In this document: piece after piece, positions 1-26,721 of the stretch
Position numbering within the stretch: position 1 is the first letter of the stretch
Layout: the number at the start of each line of letters is the position of its first letter
Position numbers and translations under genes: made by a program
IMG/VR virus record: IMGVR_UViG_2778260996_000006
Direction: 5' to 3' (one strand)
Length of the DNA stretch: 26,721 nt
Source of the DNA: a virus
Taxonomy: Duplodnaviria; Heunggongvirae; Uroviricota; Caudoviricetes
The notes under the pieces: generated by a model
Databases searched by the model: none
The model's input: only the letters and a program-made list of their open reading frames with translations
What the model was told of the DNA's origin: nothing

Positions 1-24
1 AGCGTCCACCATATTTGGTGTCCA

Positions 25-219
25 CTATTCTCTCAGGAATTTCAGGATCTGCCAGACGGTGCTGAGACGACGCTTACGCACAACCGCCGTCACCGCGTCA
101 GGATCGAATGACTGAACGATGCCAGGCAAAGCGACGCGGATCTGGTTCTTTGTGGTTTCCCGCTCGGATTTGAATGTTTCGGCAAGGTCGCCGCTACGAG
201 TCTGGTCTGATATGGCCAT
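25..219 (-). CDS. small hypothetical protein (64 aa) at the left edge, probably the next gene of the late/tail operon
   Basis: ATG at 219 with AGGAG 8 nt upstream; ORF-track start at 252 rejected because it lies inside the terminator hairpin; no recognisable motif. Confidence 0.4.
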   Translation of the reverse strand: MAISDQTRSGDLAETFKSERETTKNQIRVALPGIVQSFDPDAVTAVVRKRRLSTVWQILKFLRE

Positions 220-455: not shown

Positions 456-1010
456 CTATGCCTTATTTATCAAAAGAAAAGTAACCGATAATATGAAAAA
501 ACCGAAAGATAACGCAATTCCTTCAAAAAGATAACGAGCGTAAACTGCCTTTTCTTTATGAAGACTTTCGATCAATTCAACAGCTTTACCATACTGAAAC
601 ATATGGTATCTAAGCGTTTTAATTTTATCACCGTAAAATAAAAAATCATGCTCTTCTTTTCGCTTATGAATAGGCATTTTTGGTATATCTTTCAGTCCCC
701 AAGTACGCCATAGGAAAAAAAAGCACATAACAATACAAACAAAGCACAGATATGCACAAAGTATAGATAATGTTAAAAACCAATTACTCTTTAGCCCACT
801 TTTGAAATCAACAGTCCCAAATACAGCCAGTAGAGCAGAGGTTTCTACAGCTAAAATAGCAAGAAGGTAGTTAACTTTGTCCTCAAGACGACGATATGTT
901 GATTTTGCTTCCTCATATCTATCTTTATAATATGACGAAATAAAATCAGCGCCTATAGTCTCAATTGCCTTTTGTTCTTCTGTTGTATCTATTGACGAAC
1001 GCTTGCTCAT
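456..1010 (-). CDS. hypothetical integral membrane protein (184 aa, about 3 predicted TM segments), AT-rich cargo gene
   Basis: ORF track; hydrophobic stretches LLAILAVETSALLAVFG, WFLTLSILCAYLCFVCIVMCFFFLW and LFEGIALSFGFFILSVTFLLI; visibly lower G+C than flanking tail genes. Confidence 0.6.
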   Translation of the reverse strand: MSKRSSIDTTEEQKAIETIGADFISSYYKDRYEEAKSTYRRLEDKVNYLLAILAVETSALLAVFGTVDFKSGLKSNWFLTLSILCAYLCFVCIVMCFFFLWRTWGLKDIPKMPIHKRKEEHDFLFYGDKIKTLRYHMFQYGKAVELIESLHKEKAVYARYLFEGIALSFGFFILSVTFLLINKA

Positions 1011-1017
1011 TTCTCAA

Positions 1018-1365
1018 TCAACCAACAACTTTCTTACACGGGAAAGAGCCAATAATTTTCGGAGCATCCATGCTGTTCTGCAACAACTGGACGTTCAGGA
1101 AACGCGTTTTAGTGCCAGGTCGATGGATATACTCGAACCCATAATTGTTGCCATCTTTGGCAGGCATCAGGTCCATTTTGATCTGCATGCCTGTACCGTC
1201 TTTACCCAACATTTTTACTTTTTGGGACGTTACTGTTTCGCCATTGATTTTAAATAATGAATCAGGGATCGCATCCATACGAAAGTTGCCGCATTGCATC
1301 GTTATGGTGTTTGCACTTACACCAACAGACACTAATGCCAGCAATGAAAATATCCATCGTTTCAT
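1018..1365 (-). CDS. small secreted/periplasmic protein (116 aa) with cleavable signal peptide
   Basis: Start trimmed to ATG at 1365 (GAGG upstream); N-terminus MKRWIFSLLALVSVGVSA/NT looks like a Sec signal peptide with AxA-like site; no lipobox; two Cys in mature part. Confidence 0.55.
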   Translation of the reverse strand: MKRWIFSLLALVSVGVSANTITMQCGNFRMDAIPDSLFKINGETVTSQKVKMLGKDGTGMQIKMDLMPAKDGNNYGFEYIHRPGTKTRFLNVQLLQNSMDAPKIIGSFPCKKVVG

Positions 1366-1367
1366 TT

Positions 1368-2871
1368 CTATAATCCTCTCTGAAAAGCAGTGCTGGATGG
1401 CATATCCTGCGCACCGCGCGCTTCGCACATCATATCCATGTACCACGCCTGGCCCCTTGTATCGCCAGTGTACATAATCCCGCGCACAATATAAACGCCA
1501 TCCGTTGCGATGCTGGCAGGCTGCGATGTGGTGCCGCTTAGCGTAATATTTCCGTCCGTGTTCTGGTCGGTGATCTGCCCACCAGCCATAGCGATATCGT
1601 TGTTCGACAACGCGGTGCGATATACGGAAGCCTGATCCAGTTGAATGAGCCCATTAACCCGGATGTTCGGATTAATAAGCGCGCGAACGTTTACGCCGTT
1701 GCCGATGGTCTGCTGCGGCATGCCAATAAGCCCGGTAGCGCTGTTGAGCACAATCGCTTCGTGAACATATTCATTATTCGCCACCATCTGGCGCTGACCG
1801 TCTACGAATTGCCATGTTGCGCCACATTGCCCGGCTACGTTATCCATTAGATGCCGCGTCATGCCAAAGAGCACCCGCCCCCGGGGGAATACAGTAGCAG
1901 GCATTTCAGGCGTCAGGCCTTCGGTCGCACCTTTGGCTTCGAAGTCTTTCATCAGCGCACGGTTCACATCAGCGACCGTGTAACCGGCAGCCAGCGTCTG
2001 TGAGGTTATACTGGTGGCAAAAGCCAGATCAGTATCTGCTGCCTGAATCAGGACGTAGGAATCAACCGGACTGTCTTTTCCTGTAACCGAGTAGCGAATT
2101 TCACCGCTGAAAATCAGTCCGTAGTTGCGGCCATCACTCTGGCCCACGTCCGCCGCATCAACCTCCCGCACGATCCCGACGTCGCTTGCCGACACCTCCG
2201 GCGCGATACCGTCGTAACCCGCAATCAGACGCACTTTCGAAAACTCCCGCCCGGTGATTCGGTTCACAGTATCTGCCGAGAGGTTATAAATTTTGATAGT
2301 CCCTACCCGGGACGCGCTGCTGATGTTGAACCAGTCGATCGTAAAGGTCACTTTAAAATCACTTAGCTCAATTCCCTGACCGTTCCCGTCCACAAGCTGC
2401 ATTCACATCAGCGACCGTGTAACCGGCAGCCAGCGTCTGTGAGGTTATACTGGTGGCAAAAGCCAGATCAGTATCTGCTGCCTGAATCAGGACGTAGGAA
2501 TCAACCGGACTGTCTTTTCCTGTAACCGAGTAGCGAATTTCACCGCTGAAAATCAGTCCGTAGTTGCGGCCATCACTCTGGCCCACGTCCGCCGCATCAA
2601 CCTCCCGCACGATCCCGACGTCGCTTGCCGACACCTCCGGCGCGATACCGTCGTAACCCGCAATCAGACGCACTTTCGAAAACTCCCGCCCGGTGATTCG
2701 GTTCACAGTATCTGCCGAGAGGTTATAAATTTTGATAGTCCCTACCCGGGACGCGCTGCTGATGTTGAACCAGTCGATCGTAAAGGTCACTTTAAAATCA
2801 CTTAGCTCAATTCCCTGACCGTTCCCGTCCACAAGCTGCAGCTCGAAATGTCTCATCCAGTTCTGTGACAT
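1368..2871 (-). pseudogene. distal tail/baseplate-hub-like protein, reading frame broken by an internal 439-bp tandem duplication
   Basis: ORFs 2368..2871 and 1368..2402 carry the same 146-aa segment; removing one repeat copy restores a single ORF of about 354 aa. Confidence 0.6.
1963..2840. repeat. perfect tandem direct duplication, 2 x 439 bp (1963-2401 and 2402-2840)
   Basis: Base-by-base comparison shows identity over both copies; flanks differ (1962 g vs 2401 a; 2402 t vs 2841 g). Confidence 0.9.
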
Positions 2872-2873
2872 GC

Positions 2874-3176
2874 TTACTCCGTTGATACCAGTAAATGGCT
2901 GCGACCGCCCAGGTCAGTTTTTGTGGGGTAATCCTGTGTGTTGTCATCACAGACCACCACCAGCTTAAAACCAAGCCCCATACAGGCGTACTGCGCCAGC
3001 AGGTCAGCACCAGTGACGAGAGGAATACCGGAGATTACCGGCTCCCCTCTGTCGTTCTGCAGGTCCATAATCCAGTACAGATCGCGCCATATGATGCTAA
3101 TCCGCCAGGTAACACCACCCAGGACGATGCTGAACTGCTGGTTGTCCGCTGTCAGCGGAATTTCCTGAATTGCCAT
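2874..3176 (-). CDS. hypothetical tail protein (100 aa)
   Basis: ORF track; position downstream of tape measure in tightly packed operon. Confidence 0.45.
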   Translation of the reverse strand: MAIQEIPLTADNQQFSIVLGGVTWRISIIWRDLYWIMDLQNDRGEPVISGIPLVTGADLLAQYACMGLGFKLVVVCDDNTQDYPTKTDLGGRSHLLVSTE

Positions 3177-3763
3177 TAGCCGCCCCCCAGTAATGACGCC
3201 ACGTTACCCGTGATGCTTTTCAGCAGTGAAGTATCTGGAGGCTTGGTGGTTTTGTTGCCGCTGTTCTGTACCGCCGACGTGCTGGCCCCTTCCTTCATGT
3301 TGGTTTTATCCGCGACGGAAATCTGCTGTGTCCGGGAGATAAGGACCTCCCTCAGGGTGAGGACGGCGGACAGGACGTTTTCGGTTGTCTTGTCCGTCGT
3401 CACTTCCAGCGCCCGGATCAACATGTTGCTGTACAGTCGTTTACCGGTTACCACATCGAAGGGGATACGGCTTTCCTGCAGATCCAGTAGCTCCTGATAC
3501 GTCTGCTGAGGACTCAGGCCGAGCAGGCTGGTAGCCGTCAGGTTACTGGCAAAATCCAGCAATGCGCCACCACCGGCGAAACCAACCTCCATCACCACTT
3601 CTGACGGTTTTTTATAGGCATGATCAGCGACAGCGGCCCCGACCTCTACCGGATGCTCTGTTATTTCAAGCATATCTGTATGCTTCTCTGAAATAACAAC
3701 ACAGGGAACAATCATTCCTATTTTTCTGCTCTGCTGATGAAAAAGTGTAGAGAGAATATCCAC
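3176..3763 (-). CDS. hypothetical tail protein (195 aa), start overlaps tape-measure stop (TGATG)
   Basis: ORF track; translational coupling to the upstream gene. Confidence 0.5.
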   Translation of the reverse strand: MDILSTLFHQQSRKIGMIVPCVVISEKHTDMLEITEHPVEVGAAVADHAYKKPSEVVMEVGFAGGGALLDFASNLTATSLLGLSPQQTYQELLDLQESRIPFDVVTGKRLYSNMLIRALEVTTDKTTENVLSAVLTLREVLISRTQQISVADKTNMKEGASTSAVQNSGNKTTKPPDTSLLKSITGNVASLLGGG

Positions 3764-5751
3764 TAACCCACCCTCACCTGATTACTTCGCATGACCTGAG
3801 CATTTGCAGACTGTTGCCGACGTGCAACCTCATTACCGACAGCGTGCGGATCTCCACCACCGTAAATGTGGTAGGTATTTTGCTGGTTAACCTCTGTCAC
3901 TTTGCCACTAATTCCCGCCACGGCAGCCTTATTAATCAGCTCCCGAGAATAGATATTTCTTCCATTCTCATGCTGGATAATGCTGCTCATCAATGCTGAC
4001 ATGGTTTGCGGATCGCTCATATTCAGGGCAGCCCGGGGATCCACTCCCAGTCGTTGCGATACAGCCCTGATATACGCAGTTGTGTTGTTATTATCAGACG
4101 CAGGTGCCCAGGTAGAGATAATTTTCTCCACACTGTTTATTCCCCGTCCGGCGTACAGCATTAACTGACGAGCAAGAGCCCGTAATCCATCAAAAGCAGT
4201 TTCAAATCTGGCAAATCGCCCGCCCGGGCGTTCAAGAGAAGCCCCTGCCTGACCAGCAAAATTAAGGTTTCCCGGATTGTTATTCCGTTCTCCTCGTTTC
4301 GTAGCCTGTGCATGTTGTTCCGGCTCATCATCACCAAACCAGCCGCGTACCGTCCGGCCCACACTGCGGGGATCGAATCCCCAGTGCTCTTTAATCCAGT
4401 CGGCAGTACTGTTAGCGCTGTCTGTAACCATCGGCATCGCTGACGGATTTTCGCTGCCCTGATTAAGTATCTGTTTGCCGATGCTGACGGCATCAGCCCA
4501 GCGGCCATCTTTGATAGCGTTGAGCAGGTCGGCGATCATGTTCAGCATTTTGCTGAATTCGCCCATCTGGTCGATGAAGTTGCTGAAATCCCACTTCAGG
4601 GACCATGATTTGGGGTCAATATTGAGCAGTTTCGCCAGCGCTTTCACCAGGTCGTTAACGGTCGTTTTAAGGTCACGAACCATCTTCAGCGCGGCATCGA
4701 CCTCCGGTTTCCACTTGCCCCAGTCAATCAGGCTGTCGCCGCCTTCCTTCCAGGTCTGATAGTCCTCCCACAGGAGGGCAATACCCGCCGCCAGCGCGGT
4801 AATGAGGCCAATCGGCGACATCCAGAACGTACTGTTCAGAATGCGCAGCGCAATCGTCAGTGCGCCAAACAGCGAGATCAACTCCCGCGTTTGCTTATCC
4901 AGCGATTGCCACCAGGTGATAAGGCCTGATGTCCCCTCAATCAGTCTGAAGAACAGCCGCCCGATAATATCCCCGAGCGCCAGAATGCCTTTTATGGCTT
5001 TCGTCAGGGTCTGCTCGATACGAGGGAAGTTGTCCAGGATATGGCGGCGCAGGGTGTCCAGCGAACCCGCAAGCCCCCCCGCAAGATTAGAGCCGATTTT
5101 GTCACGGGCCATGCCTGCCATCGCGCCAAACTCACGCAGGGAGGTCATAAATTTGTTGGAGCTTCTGGCCGCCTCGTCAGCATTGAAGCCGATAGCTTTC
5201 GCCATTGCGCTGTACTGCCCGGAGAAGCCACCCACACCCCGGCGCATCGCCATAAGGGTATTTTCGTCAATGCCCAGCATCTGCGCATACTGGTTAGCCC
5301 GGTAATACGGCATGCTGCTGAGTTTCTGTCCAACGCCCGTAAAAATAGCGGCCATGTCACGCATGTTACCGCTGGCATCACGGGTCTGTACGCCCAGGCG
5401 ATTCAGAAAGCCTTCTGCACCGGGATTGTTACGAATAAACCGGGATAGGCTTTCCAGAGAAGATCGCGCAGCGTCCACGCTGCCGCCAACCTGCGAAACC
5501 GCATAGCCAATAGACTGAATTCCCTGGACTGTCGCGCCGGTGCGCTGTGACGCCCAGTAAAGATTATCCAGGCCGGAGGCGATCTTAGCCGTGAAGGCCA
5601 CCACGGACAACGCAGCTCCTTCAACAGCCAGCCCCATTTTGATGACATTTGCAGTTGTACCGGCGAGGACAGAACCGAACTTTTTCGCTCCTGCATCATC
5701 CACACTGAAGCCAAGCGAGACGAGGAAATCTTTAATAGTTTCAGCGTTCAT
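3763..5751 (-). CDS. tail tape measure protein
   Basis: Long protein with a central hydrophobic block, directly downstream of the frameshifted chaperone; start trimmed to MNAETIKDF (ATG at 5751, GAGAGAGGA RBS). Confidence 0.8.
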   Translation of the reverse strand: MNAETIKDFLVSLGFSVDDAGAKKFGSVLAGTTANVIKMGLAVEGAALSVVAFTAKIASGLDNLYWASQRTGATVQGIQSIGYAVSQVGGSVDAARSSLESLSRFIRNNPGAEGFLNRLGVQTRDASGNMRDMAAIFTGVGQKLSSMPYYRANQYAQMLGIDENTLMAMRRGVGGFSGQYSAMAKAIGFNADEAARSSNKFMTSLREFGAMAGMARDKIGSNLAGGLAGSLDTLRRHILDNFPRIEQTLTKAIKGILALGDIIGRLFFRLIEGTSGLITWWQSLDKQTRELISLFGALTIALRILNSTFWMSPIGLITALAAGIALLWEDYQTWKEGGDSLIDWGKWKPEVDAALKMVRDLKTTVNDLVKALAKLLNIDPKSWSLKWDFSNFIDQMGEFSKMLNMIADLLNAIKDGRWADAVSIGKQILNQGSENPSAMPMVTDSANSTADWIKEHWGFDPRSVGRTVRGWFGDDEPEQHAQATKRGERNNNPGNLNFAGQAGASLERPGGRFARFETAFDGLRALARQLMLYAGRGINSVEKIISTWAPASDNNNTTAYIRAVSQRLGVDPRAALNMSDPQTMSALMSSIIQHENGRNIYSRELINKAAVAGISGKVTEVNQQNTYHIYGGGDPHAVGNEVARRQQSANAQVMRSNQVRVG

Positions 5752-7984: not shown

Positions 7985-8551
7985 TTAATCTCCGAAAAAG
8001 ATGACTGGTGCATCCACCAGCGATTTAATACCGTACTCGCGCACAACCTTCCGGCGCAGGCGCACCGTCATATCGTAGCGGCGGACCCATTGCTGATTAA
8101 TAAGTTCAGGGAAGGGAGTCAGACCTGTGTAATCGCCAAGAGACAGCCCCAGCGCATTCAGTGCTGCATTGTTCTGCGGCACAGATATACCGTCACGAAA
8201 CCGGGACGCATACACCATCCCCGCCGGTCCATAAAACGAAGCCATACACTCAATCGTTTCATGCCGCCAGAGCTGAGAGCCATCATCGGTCTGTCTGGTG
8301 AATGCCGGACTGTCATCACCTGACCATCCGATAACCCCAAACGCACACCAGTTCGTTTCAACCGGTAGCAGTGGCGGCTGCTCTTTCTGCCAGCGCGGGC
8401 GAACCATCCCGGCAGACAGACCGGAAACGTTACGTATCCACTGGCTTAACAGCCTGTCGAGCGCTTCGTCATAATCCGGATCGCCACTGGTTGGTATTAA
8501 CCATCCGCGCTCTGTACTGGTGTTATTGCTCAACCGGAGTTCCCCCATCAA
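7985..8551 (-). CDS. head-tail joining / tail completion protein (188 aa)
   Basis: ORF track; synteny between capsid and tail genes. Confidence 0.4.
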   Translation of the reverse strand: MMGELRLSNNTSTERGWLIPTSGDPDYDEALDRLLSQWIRNVSGLSAGMVRPRWQKEQPPLLPVETNWCAFGVIGWSGDDSPAFTRQTDDGSQLWRHETIECMASFYGPAGMVYASRFRDGISVPQNNAALNALGLSLGDYTGLTPFPELINQQWVRRYDMTVRLRRKVVREYGIKSLVDAPVIFFGD

Positions 8552-8912
8552 ACGGCATCAACTCACAATGCGCCTGAACGAATCCGGCCCCATAAGCTGT
8601 ATACGGGTCGACGAAGGTCACACGGTAATCACGGCCCTGATACGTCACGATATCGGCATCACGGCCAGTCTGTCCCTGCGTCAGTCGCTCAGTCGTCACA
8701 ATCAGAATTGCACCACTGATTACCTGCCCGGCCTGCATACGACGGTTTTCCAGAGAGCGATCAACAGTAACGACTCCGGCAAACTGCTTTTTAACTTCGC
8801 TGTCGCTGCCGATTCCGTCCTCATCCACCGTTTGCACACGGCGTGTTACCCACAAATTGAAGTCGCAAAAATCGGGGTCAAAAAGCACATCTGTTACATC
8901 AAGAGTCGGCAT
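8523..8912 (-). CDS. head-tail connector protein (129 aa)
   Basis: ORF track; synteny. Confidence 0.4.
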   Translation of the reverse strand: MPTLDVTDVLFDPDFCDFNLWVTRRVQTVDEDGIGSDSEVKKQFAGVVTVDRSLENRRMQAGQVISGAILIVTTERLTQGQTGRDADIVTYQGRDYRVTFVDPYTAYGAGFVQAHCELMPFDGGTPVEQ

Positions 8913-9453
8913 CTTTATCCCTCACTACATGGGTAATAGCTCTGCGATATTGCCCGGTGTCAATTAATGGTTTCGCCAGATCGGTTCCGGGAGATTCGCC
9001 AGCAACACGCCGGGCAAGTTCCAGTGTTGCCCCCTTGCACCCCCGACGAGCCCGGGCTTCAACAGTACTGTCAGCAAGCGGCGTAAAGCCGGTAATGGTC
9101 ATGTAACGCCTGACGCCATTAACGGCCAGCGTTCCGGCACGGTTGAGTGCACTTTCTGCTCCCGCAGCATTACCATCAAGTGCAGCCTGCGCCGCGGCTT
9201 TAAGCTGCGGCACCGTCTGCTCTTCTGCCGATTTAACGCCGGGGACCAGGTGAGGTCGTGGCGGGATGTTCTGCTCTGGTGAGCCGTATTCGTTGAGGTA
9301 ACCGATGCCCGCATTACCAAACGGAACATCATCCCGTTCGCTGTCTTCCGAAGGGATGCCGACCAGCACATCTTTTTTGGTTAACGACCTGAGCGCATCC
9401 AGAATGGCCTTAGCGTTATCCACCCTCGTTGTTACACCGCTTTTGAAACTCAT
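8899..9453 (-). CDS. head completion / connector protein (184 aa)
   Basis: ORF track; synteny. Confidence 0.4.
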
Positions 9454-9857
9454 AGCTGGCGACCGCCTGCACCGAACATCGTGATCAACTGATAAAATTC
9501 AGCGCCATATCGGGTGTTATTCCAGAAACCTGCATCAGGATTCAGCGTCGCGCTGGTGTCATAGCTGACGCTTACCTTATCCACGGACTTTGAGGACTGA
9601 ACACCATTGGTTGAACCGCCCGGACCACCAGCCAGCATCGCTCTGCTGTCAGCCGCCCAGAGCGTCATGTAGTGAGCAACGAACAACCCGGCAAAGTACG
9701 GAAACAACTTTTTGCCGGTGACATTTTCGCTCAGCAGTTCATCGGCCAGATTCAGACGGAACCCGATTTGGGCGTCGGGATATTTTGCCGGGTCAGCAAA
9801 CTGCGGGAAGTCGCGGCGAAAATCACTTACCGCTGGCAGACTTTGATTCTTTGACAT
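9450..9857 (-). CDS. hypothetical head-tail protein, start uncertain (ATG 9857 or 9869)
   Basis: ORF track trimmed; the long N-terminal extension in the track overlaps the upstream gene. Confidence 0.35.
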
Positions 9858-10191
9858 CTTTAGCCCCATTACCGCCAGTCCGGGCGGCAGTAATCTGCGC
9901 CTGCAGGCTGTCGTTCTGCTCCTGCAGTTTGAGCAATGCATCTTTAAGATCGGCAATCAGCTTATCTTTGTCGGCAATCTGCGCTTGCAGGCCGTCGATA
10001 ATGGGTTGCAGATCATCGGTGTCGCTAATCACGCTTTCGGAAAGCTCAGAGTGCGCCTGGGTGAACCAGTGCGACGCGACCTCTTCCGGTACGTTATGCC
10101 GTCCCCGGCCAAACTCCTGTTTTGACTGATCGCCGAGCGTCAGCGTAAACGGGGTGTGAACATGGATGGTAACCAGCTTTTCTTTCGCCAT
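9823..10191 (-). CDS. hypothetical virion protein with C-terminal coiled coil (122 aa)
   Basis: Start trimmed to MAKEKL (ATG 10191, AGGA RBS); heptad-like C-terminus. Confidence 0.45.
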
Positions 10192-10205
10192 TTCAGTTTC
10201 CTTCA

Positions 10206-10221
10206 GGCCCCTTTCGGGGCC
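10206..10221 (-). other. stable stem-loop downstream of major capsid gene (GGCCCC-GAAA-GGGGCC, GNRA loop)
   Basis: Perfect 6-bp GC stem read directly; no U-tract follows, so probably an mRNA stability/processing element rather than a terminator. Confidence 0.4.
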
Positions 10222-10231
10222 ATTCTGGTTA

Positions 10232-11173
10232 TCAGATACCGTCCACATAGGACAGAGTTTCTTTATACACTGGCTCGACTGCACCCAGCTTGCCGTAGTA
10301 AGTGACGATCTGATACAGGCCGCGATACTGCACCGGCACGCTCTGAAGCGGAACCAGCGGGTAGCGGACGTATTTTTTATCGTTGGTGTACGCAACCATG
10401 CGATCCTTATTCCCCACACCACGGCCTTTCAGCCATTTAACCGCGCGGATATTCAGCGGAACACCGTTCTGGTGATAGCTGATGGTGTTGGTCTGAAGGT
10501 ACGTCAACAGGGACTGGTTACCCGCAGATGAAACGATGATGCTGGACAACAGAGCAAACTGTTCAGGCGGGATCAGCAAATCACGCGGGACCACAGAGTA
10601 ACCAGAAGCGGCCCACGCATCAGACAGCACCTGGTTAATGCTTGCGCGGATTTCGTCCGGTGTTGAGGTTGCCCACGTTTTGGCAGCGTTGTTGACAGGC
10701 ACGCCGTCCAGGGTAACAAGGCCTTTCAGGTTTAATGCGGAATCGCCAACATATACCTGTTCATCGTTATCCATCTGCCATTTCAGTTGCATCCCGTCAT
10801 ACTTCTGCGTATCAATCGGGCGGCCGACCTGCTGAGCAGCCTGCAATTCTATGACCGTCCAGCCAAGTTCCATCCCCCACAGGTTCAGCGGGTTACCGGA
10901 TTTGCCGGTATCCACGTTCACGCCAGCAATAGCGGTTGAGTCTTTGCCTACCCAGTTTTTGCCATTCGGATTTGCACCAGTACCCGCAGCGGCGAAGCTG
11001 GTATTCGTCCAGCTGGAAATGTCATCTGCGATAGAGACATCTTCACGCAACTGAATATCGCGGGTCCAGGTGTACCCCACCAGTGGCAGGTTCAGCGTCT
11101 GGTCGAGTCGCTCCAGCTCCCCGATGAGAAAGGCACCAGAGCTGTCAACGGTTGCCTGATCAAAAGTAATCAT
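10232..11173 (-). CDS. major capsid protein (313 aa)
   Basis: Position after protease/scaffold and a small structural gene; followed by a stabilising hairpin. Confidence 0.7.
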   Translation of the reverse strand: MITFDQATVDSSGAFLIGELERLDQTLNLPLVGYTWTRDIQLREDVSIADDISSWTNTSFAAAGTGANPNGKNWVGKDSTAIAGVNVDTGKSGNPLNLWGMELGWTVIELQAAQQVGRPIDTQKYDGMQLKWQMDNDEQVYVGDSALNLKGLVTLDGVPVNNAAKTWATSTPDEIRASINQVLSDAWAASGYSVVPRDLLIPPEQFALLSSIIVSSAGNQSLLTYLQTNTISYHQNGVPLNIRAVKWLKGRGVGNKDRMVAYTNDKKYVRYPLVPLQSVPVQYRGLYQIVTYYGKLGAVEPVYKETLSYVDGI

Positions 11174-26284: not shown

Positions 26285-26662
26285 ATGAAACTGAAGCTGA
26301 ACAATGTTCGTCTGGCCTTCCCGTCTCTGTTTGAAGCTAAAACTGTAAACGGCGAAGGCGATCCGCGTTTCTCCGCAGTATTTTTAATGTCTCCCAAACA
26401 CCCACAACTGGAAGAAATCCGTAAAGCTATGAAGCAGGTAGCGAAGGAAAAATGGGGAGAGAAGTGGGAGCCCATTTATAACCAGCTGGAGAAAAAACTC
26501 AATCTGTGCCTGCATGATGGTGATGAAAAAGCAGAGTATGAAGGCTTCCCCGGTAATTTCTTCCTGAATGCTGCTAACAAAGCGCGCCCAGCTGTTCTTG
26601 ATCGCGATCGTTCGCCACTTATTCAGGCTGACGGACGTCCCTATGGTAAGCGTACAGCCTGA
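26285..26662 (+). CDS. DUF2815-like putative ssDNA-binding protein (125 aa, possibly C-terminally truncated)
   Basis: N-terminal VRLAFPSLFEAK resembles DUF2815 proteins as recalled; pairing with the upstream nuclease. Confidence 0.55.
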   Translation: MKLKLNNVRLAFPSLFEAKTVNGEGDPRFSAVFLMSPKHPQLEEIRKAMKQVAKEKWGEKWEPIYNQLEKKLNLCLHDGDEKAEYEGFPGNFFLNAANKARPAVLDRDRSPLIQADGRPYGKRTA

Positions 26663-26721
26663 ACCGTCTGGTCAGAATCTGACGAATTAGACAAAGTGGT
26701 GTCCACCAAATAAGTAGTGGG

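Follow-up and report, generated by a model that had tools for sequence, protein, structure and literature searches.

Is the perfect tandem duplication in a tail gene of this Escherichia coli prophage a mutation, a switch or an error of assembly? The window, i.e. the whole stretch of 26,721 nucleotides analyzed here, contains two identical, adjacent copies of a 439-bp segment within a gene on the minus strand. A preliminary description of this DNA offered three readings: a very recent duplication that inactivates the tail of a defective prophage, a reversible on/off switch operated by RecA-mediated collapse of the repeat, or an assembly artefact.

Structure of the duplication

The two copies are arranged as follows:

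2402..2840, minus strand: 439-bp unit, the copy closer to the start of the gene (hub nt 32-470, codons 11-157 in part), identical to 1963-2401
1963..2401, minus strand: second copy of the unit, identical to 2402-2840, which runs on into the remaining hub gene

Direct string comparison showed that positions 1963-2401 equal positions 2402-2840 base for base, and Tandem Repeats Finder reported a period of 439, 2.0 copies, 100% matches and a score of 1756. Both methods thus bear out the two identical tandem copies described previously. A perfect repeat of 439 bases cannot have arisen by chance. Within the window, each terminal 30-mer of the unit is present in the two unit copies only. The culture may carry more than two copies, or may be mixed with respect to the duplication.

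The period-439 match in the string comparison spans exactly 439 positions. The unit starts with TTCAC… and ends with …AGCTGCA, and the flanking sequences (…GCGCACGG before, GCTCG… after) are unlike these ends. The breakpoints therefore lack microhomology. The junction between the copies reads ...GATGTGAA|TGCAGCTT... The right breakpoint, CTGCA|G, falls within the palindrome AGCTGCAGCT, a PstI site; this site was considered as a cause of the breakpoint and was taken as a coincidence, as none is present at the left breakpoint. As also described previously, the unit length is not a multiple of three (439 = 3 x 146 + 1), and the reading frame of the gene is therefore shifted.

Identity of the duplicated gene

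Removal of one copy restores an open reading frame of 354 amino acids, and the restored sequence has exact matches on at least 1000 public contigs. This collapsed protein matches the PHROG family phrog_196 'baseplate hub' with E=7.8e-89 over residues 1-351 and the hub protein gp19 of cyanophage Pam3 (PDB 7yfz chain t) with E=2.4e-12 over residues 99-295, and it also matches gp137 of phi92. The Pfam family PF22759 (E217_GP41) gave 22.6 bits for this hub allele, which is under the gathering cut-off of 27 bits. Family membership was therefore based on synteny and on the matches to PHROG and PDB; many close homologues of the hub have a precomputed PF22759 match. On the minus strand, which carries all genes in this part of the window, the gene follows genes for a tape measure protein (662 aa), a Dit-like protein (195 aa) and a Pam3_gp18 protein (100 aa):

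3763..5751, minus strand: tape measure protein gene, 662 aa (phrog_2276, E=9e-284)
3176..3763, minus strand: Dit-like baseplate protein gene (Pfam PF21821, E=6e-33)
2874..3176, minus strand: baseplate plug gene of the Pam3_gp18 family, directly upstream of the hub gene (Pfam PF22479, E=6e-25)

Downstream of the hub gene, intact relatives harbor a few small ORFs, followed by the genes for the spike, the sheath initiator and a Baseplate_J protein. In the nearest named phages, Salmonella phage SEN34 and Yersinia phage YP3, the homologous gene is annotated as baseplate hub. The PHROG 196 assignment, the Pam3 gp19 match and synteny thus agree with the earlier placement of the affected gene where a baseplate hub is expected. 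Judged by its sequence, the duplicated gene is that of a 354-aa baseplate hub (PHROG 196, homologue of Pam3 gp19) in a SEN34-like myovirus prophage of E. coli. Pam3 gp19 differs from it in lacking about 98 N-terminal residues that are present in the collapsed hub, and the case described here differs from E217/Pam3-type hubs in that the gene is split by the duplication. An AlphaFold2 model of a homologue with 97% identity, built from an alignment of 31 sequences, was too poor to use (mean pLDDT 57, pTM 0.41).

Comparison with homologous genes, which had been proposed as a check, revealed neither a repeated segment nor a longer or in-frame duplicated form, and hence no two in-frame repeats, among the best 120 of 670 homologue clusters. 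In these clusters (E<=1e-10), full-length hub homologues are single ORFs of 339-359 aa. A naturally two-part hub gene or a programmed frameshift was rejected on this basis.

The prophage carries further lesions. Both ends of the window are termini of IS66-family elements with GTAAGCG… facing outward, and each interrupts a gene:

1..77, strand not assigned: end of an IS66-family element (GTAAGCG... outward) that interrupts the spike gene, at the contig end; the same end adjoins an IS66 tnpA gene in 1,780 of 5,426 genomes
25..219, minus strand: truncated spike ORF fused to IS66, 64 aa (intact spike 250 aa)
26285..26662, plus strand: ssDNA-binding gene (Enc34_ssDNA-bd / DUF2815), cut to 125 aa by a second IS66
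26646..26721, strand not assigned: second IS66-family end (GTAAGCGTACAGCC...), at the contig end; this insertion is assembled through in GCA_000188775.2

After the insertion, the ssDNA-binding gene keeps 125 of its 182 codons.

Effect on the reading frame

The frameshift at the junction divides the hub gene into two overlapping ORFs:

2368..2871, minus strand: ORF1, 167 aa, comprising hub residues 1-156 followed by 11 residues out of frame (AACGRERSGN tail); RefSeq WP_096946288.1
1368..2402, minus strand: ORF2, 344 aa, a Met followed by hub residues 12-354; RefSeq WP_096946287.1
2400..2402, minus strand: ATG formed at the junction from the final base of the upstream copy (A) and the initial bases of the downstream copy (TG), in place of CTG (Leu11)

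ORF2 begins with MQLVDG… and corresponds to the native hub without residues 1-10 and with the substitution L11M, so that 343 of the 354 native residues are retained. The two ORFs have native residues 12-156 in common. The split into two ORFs is thus as described before, and the shared segment of 146 aa given there is off by one residue: 145 are identical, and residue 11 differs (Leu in ORF1, Met in ORF2). The origin of the ORF2 start codon (2402-2400) at the junction had been overlooked.

The native ATG of ORF1 is preceded by a GGAG Shine-Dalgarno motif 7 nt upstream. Its pairing with the anti-Shine-Dalgarno sequence amounts to -6.1 kcal/mol, and most neighboring tail genes reach about -6 to -9. 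The junction ATG has no Shine-Dalgarno motif; its value of -2.4 kcal/mol lies at the bottom of the range among the genes of the window. The stop codon of ORF1 is located 32 nt downstream of the ORF2 ATG, giving an overlap of 35 nt, so a low level of ORF2 translation by termination and reinitiation after ORF1 could occur. Six residues of the hub N-terminus (M1, N4, W5, R7, E10 and L11) do not vary among 31 homologues with identities down to 62%. From the sequence we infer that a full-length hub cannot be produced from the native start, and a functional hub is probably lost or nearly lost.

Distribution among genomes

A 56-mer megablast search for the junction yielded no match in 5,426 complete E. 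coli genomes. The hub gene region itself occurs in 306 of these and is single-copy in every match listed. The junction was not found in 50,697 phage records either, and the exact junction 34-mer had no match in GTDB species representatives, IMG/VR and JGI metagenomes. These negative results speak for rarity; they cannot separate a real duplication from an artefact. As the junction is missing from these collections and the best 120 homologue clusters have no repeat, the event is limited to one clone. The closest complete genome, that of E. coli FDAARGOS_1059, differs from window positions 78-26645 by one SNP and two single-base indels; its spike gene is intact, and the unit is present once.

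Evidence that the duplication is real

Exact protein look-ups identified the window as the entire contig NJVV01000064.1 of assembly GCA_002461905.1. By exact look-up, the split ORFs WP_096946288.1 and WP_096946287.1 occur on two contigs only, compared to at least 1000 contigs for the intact allele. One is that of the window; the other, CDWKEG010000074.1 of GCA_977880285.1, shows the same junction and duplication. It carries four bases more than the window at the spike/IS66 junction and reaches differently far into both IS66 ends, which indicates that GCA_977880285.1 originates from different data or from a different pipeline.

Further evidence comes from contigs that break at the unit. Logan contigs are de Bruijn contigs with k=31, in which every 31-mer occurs once (PMC12424806). 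Two of them, ERR294532_216 and ERR13952777_304, both end at hub nt 61, which is exactly 30 nt into the unit, and two others, SRR040462_65 and ERR13952474_392, start with exactly its last 30 nt. Given the uniqueness of 31-mers in Logan, contig ends located k-1 nt inside the unit indicate branches of the graph at the unit borders. One ENA contig starts with the last 29 nt of the unit, and the ENA metagenome scaffold ETEC16-1_SAMN05544994-S010_METAG-scaffold_137 starts exactly 126 nt before the unit end, as the analogue for k=127. The partial protein expected from a contig that starts at the last 30-mer of the unit was found on five contigs; a look-up of the one expected from a graph break at k=77 gave no match. 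Counting both k values (31 and about 127), at least four additional read sets thus have branches exactly at the unit ends. These signatures are branches at the unit ends and not the junction itself, which was seen only in the two NCBI assemblies. ERR124664, from the same lineage, reads through an intact 354-aa hub gene. Contig ends exactly k-1 bases inside a repeat can therefore be used as read-level evidence where raw reads cannot be mapped.

An assembly artefact would mean that a single genomic copy had been doubled by a spurious assembler loop or by chimeric reads. The perfect identity of the copies and the draft short-read nature of the contig are compatible with this, as are the single-copy state of FDAARGOS_1059, which is nearly identical elsewhere, and the absence of the junction from all 5,426 complete E. 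coli genomes. However, in the absence of microhomology an assembler of the de Bruijn or overlap type joins the end of a unit to its start only where reads contain the junction. In addition, two assemblies from different data or pipelines share this junction, and the graphs of at least four further read sets branch exactly at both unit ends. The chance that the duplication is artefactual is therefore negligible, and this option of the preliminary description is effectively refuted. A second related prophage that shares only the unit was also considered as the source of the contig breaks. It cannot yield the end-to-start junction of the two assemblies, it would require SNPs exactly at both unit borders, and it is at odds with Logan contigs that are unbroken through the tape measure, Dit-like and plug genes. 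We conclude that the duplication is genuine and that several samples, sequenced independently of each other, contain it.

Lineage history

A non-synonymous SNP (R139C in a 184-aa protein, window position 9039) served as lineage marker and was found on 16 contigs, among them ERR294532_216 and ERR13952777_304. Within the lineage so defined, the hub gene is duplicated in some members and intact in others. ERR13952474, GCA_977880285.1 and the window share an insertion of IS66 into the spike gene, the window with a further loss of 4 bp. SRR040462 and the ETEC16-1 scaffold show the break signature together with an intact spike gene, so the duplication is older than the spike insertion. At least two further mutations have thus followed it in the course of its inheritance. 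The duplication had been called very recent, which needs to be qualified: several isolates or read sets have inherited it, and it is older than the insertion into the spike gene.

In GCA_001285105.1, a near relative, both the hub gene and the spike gene are intact, and 18.4 kb of its sequence show two SNPs relative to the window. One of the two lies at window position 412, where both break-signature runs checked (SRR040462 and ERR13952474) carry the allele of the window and not that of GCA_001285105.1. Such a pattern fits the view that GCA_001285105.1 is ancestral in state and not a revertant.

GCA_000188775.2 and SRR040461 also have the insertion of IS66 into the ssDNA-binding gene. The order of events given above applies to the spike insertion only. 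The split ORFs are absent from the proteins encoded by GCA_000188775.2, from which an unsplit hub can be inferred for this assembly. Judging from adjacent accession numbers, GCA_000188775.2 may have been assembled from the SRR04046x runs. If so, the repeat was collapsed by the assembler or the culture was mixed.

Functional interpretation

The data are very probably explained by a genuine, vertically inherited head-to-tail duplication of 439 bp in the hub gene, which is one of several decay lesions in a SEN34-like contractile-tail prophage of E. coli. It would have originated once, by illegitimate recombination or by template switching between sister strands, presumably without the use of microhomology. 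Ribosomes starting from the native Shine-Dalgarno motif and ATG would synthesize residues 1-156, change frame on crossing the junction and terminate after 11 further codons. The rest of the hub could be made from the junction ATG only, which has no ribosome-binding site, and the product would be without ten strongly conserved N-terminal residues; a functional hub would thus be lost or nearly lost. The lesion would be one of several neutral decay events, with IS66 entering the spike gene later and another IS66 the ssDNA-binding gene. The copies would still be identical because the event is young on a mutational time scale. Collapse by homologous recombination would be possible, yet it would not revive the phage in the genome of the window. 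The earlier description of a frameshifted tail gene in a defective prophage therefore holds, with the hub frame broken and IS66 in the spike and ssDNA-binding genes; its dating as very recent is the part that does not stand as worded.

Two other readings assign a residual or regulated function to the hub gene. The lesion could be leaky rather than null if ORF2, translated from the junction ATG, supplied enough trimmed hub for tail assembly. ORF2 keeps 343 of 354 residues, the stop of ORF1 lies within ORF2 in an overlap that permits reinitiation, and a virion requires few hub copies, which would ease assembly from a small supply. An in-frame ATG at the junction is moreover expected for 1.4-1.7% of all possible duplications in the hub gene (4.2-4.5% for any start codon). 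This is, however, a mild coincidence of about 1 in 60 that was recognized after the fact, and it constitutes weak evidence. The missing Shine-Dalgarno motif and a pairing energy of -2.4 kcal/mol, in the lowest range of the window's genes, argue against sufficient synthesis. The product would also lack the invariant residues M1, N4, W5, R7 and E10 and would begin within the first beta strand of the low-confidence AlphaFold2 model (residues 9-14). A leaky hub is therefore improbable. Still less credence is due to a reversible on/off switch, in which the duplication turns the hub off and RecA-mediated collapse turns it on, as in pneumococcal capsule genes. Perfect direct repeats of 439 bp are substrates for homologous deletion, which would restore the exact wild-type hub gene, and the R139C lineage includes duplicated as well as intact hubs. 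On the other hand, all collections searched contain a single junction, and no independent duplications with other end points were found among the at least 1000 contigs of the allele or the best 120 of 670 homologue clusters. The intact relative GCA_001285105.1 differs by SNPs and looks ancestral. The spike and ssDNA-binding genes are disrupted by IS66, so that toggling of the hub would change nothing in the genome of the window, and no host phenotype is known for the hub gene. Irreversible lesions of this gene occur in other strains, namely an amber codon at Q213 (vB_EcoM-606R2), a frameshift in a run of C (FDAARGOS_1059) and a hub fusion (P0048), which fit plain decay.

Reversible intragenic duplications in pneumococci provide the precedent for such a switch. 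They recur independently with varied end points, and this is taken as a hallmark of the mechanism. According to a summary of the original work, spontaneous and reversible tandem duplications within cap3A, cap8E and tts lead to phase variation (Waite et al. 2001, 2003, cited in PMC4243769). The E. coli prophage shares with these genes a perfect tandem duplication inside an ORF, which disrupts the ORF, abolishes the full-length product and is in principle precisely removable. It differs in that a single event has been fixed in one clone and in that the affected gene belongs to a prophage with other, irreversible lesions. The switch proposed in the preliminary description is thus physically possible as far as collapse is concerned, but a selected switch is not supported by one junction without recurrence and with two other lesions at hand. 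If it existed, phage tail genes would join the genes that vary in phase by duplication; none of the findings points there. A combination of both readings, in which a trickle of trimmed hub from the junction ATG is reversibly raised to full expression by collapse, would make the gene a tunable locus for tail or particle production in the clone. It is less likely again than the simple switch; if true, ancestors with an intact spike gene could have modulated their output of prophage or tailocin-like particles.

Compared to these readings, the likeness to ordinary prophage decay in E. coli is close. This copy of the prophage carries two IS66 insertions, and the hub lesions of other strains are independent of the one described here. 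The difference lies in the type of lesion, which is a less common one: a 439-bp duplication without microhomology that created a new start codon by chance. The duplication is an ordinary gene-breaking decay mutation and involves no new mechanism.

As far as the searchable literature extends, neither an earlier description of this hub duplication nor a paper with the assembly or run accessions was found, and the event is ordinary in kind. Its biological significance is small, as it adds one more route to a broken prophage gene in a bacterial clone. For annotation, the result means that the RefSeq 'hypothetical proteins' WP_096946288.1 and WP_096946287.1 are the halves of one duplicated hub gene. 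The junction sequence also provides a clean clonal marker of this E. coli lineage. The read sets of the clone range from about 2010 to 2025, as estimated from accession numbers, and include the metagenome scaffold named 'ETEC16-1'.

Sequence context of the duplication and other lesions of the hub gene

The left breakpoint of the 439-bp duplication in the baseplate-hub gene is flanked by an 8-bp direct repeat, CATCAGCG (window 1950-1957 and 1967-1974), and the right breakpoint (window 2831-2840) cuts CTGCA/G, a PstI site, within the 10-bp palindrome AGCTGCAGCT. No tie between the direct repeat or the palindrome (window 1950-1974 and 2831-2840) and the origin of the duplication was demonstrable. 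A signature of the duplication border, that is a contig end located exactly k-1 nt inside the 439-bp unit, was observed together with an intact spike gene in scaffold ETEC16-1_SAMN05544994-S010_METAG-scaffold_137 (ENA ERZ28591139; locus L029), with 'ETEC16-1' and 'METAG' as labels in its record name. Based on this border signature, the duplication-bearing clone, or its prophage, appears to have been present in the underlying sample.

Independent hub lesions, different from the 439-bp duplication, occur in other strains. Escherichia phage vB_EcoM-606R2 (ON470579.1; L005 1906-2970), deposited as a 'phage' genome, harbors an in-frame amber codon at hub residue Q213, and the hub gene of FDAARGOS_1059 (L001 5291-6354) lacks one base in the C5 run corresponding to window 1874-1878. 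Among the homologous hub proteins P0048 and P0078, the hub is joined to the product of the downstream 115-aa gene in one case, and another frameshift is also present. The hub proteins of 344 aa and 354 aa share a 90%-identity cluster with many DUF2213 proteins of 406 aa, the length of the cluster representative. As DUF2213 is encoded by a separate gene of the same prophage and is unrelated to the hub, this mixed cluster looks like a clustering oddity of the database.

Variable genes and the tape measure protein

The gene content between hub and spike (window 456-1365; comparison loci L010, L011, L014, L016 and L018, about 8450-10300) depends on the strain, and the tail module outside this interval is conserved across strains.

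Gene sets of the hub-spike interval (lengths of the gene products)
115/184/56 aa
115/115/73/56 aa
113/79 aa (DUF4282)
241 aa
113/243/142 aa
153/256/131 aa

The interval looks like a variable cargo slot within the baseplate module. The N-terminus of the 115-aa protein encoded there in the window resembles a signal peptide. A putative cell-wall-degrading domain in the tape measure protein (window 3763-5751) is suggested by PHROG matches to its C-terminal third, at about residues 474-650; the PHROGs concerned carry the annotation endolysin or tail-injection transglycosylase.

IS66 insertions

IS66-family termini, reading outward as GTAAGCG..., are located at both window ends (1-77 and 26646-26721). 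The IS66 copies bracket the prophage segment, one being inserted in the spike gene and the other in the ssDNA-binding gene. The lengths of the terminal stretches, 77 and 76 nt, suggest that a k=77 assembly graph underlies the window contig. The spike/IS66 junction of the window (77/78) reads …GTTGTGC/GTAAGCG and is 4 bp shorter than that of GCA_977880285.1 (L002 8796-8800) and Logan ERR13952474 (L027 1915-1924), …GTTGTGCAGCC/GTAAGCG. This difference is a small deletion adjoining the IS end and private to the window's assembly.

In the relative GCA_000188775.2 (ADUO01000178.1; L006 10454-13868 and 16951-17712), the assembly continues across the IS66 insertion of the ssDNA-binding gene, which there looks like two IS66-type units, tandem or nested. 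Past this insertion, the prophage encodes DNA polymerase A, a TIR-domain protein (CAP12-PCTIR_TIR) and an SNF2 helicase, a possible defence cargo.
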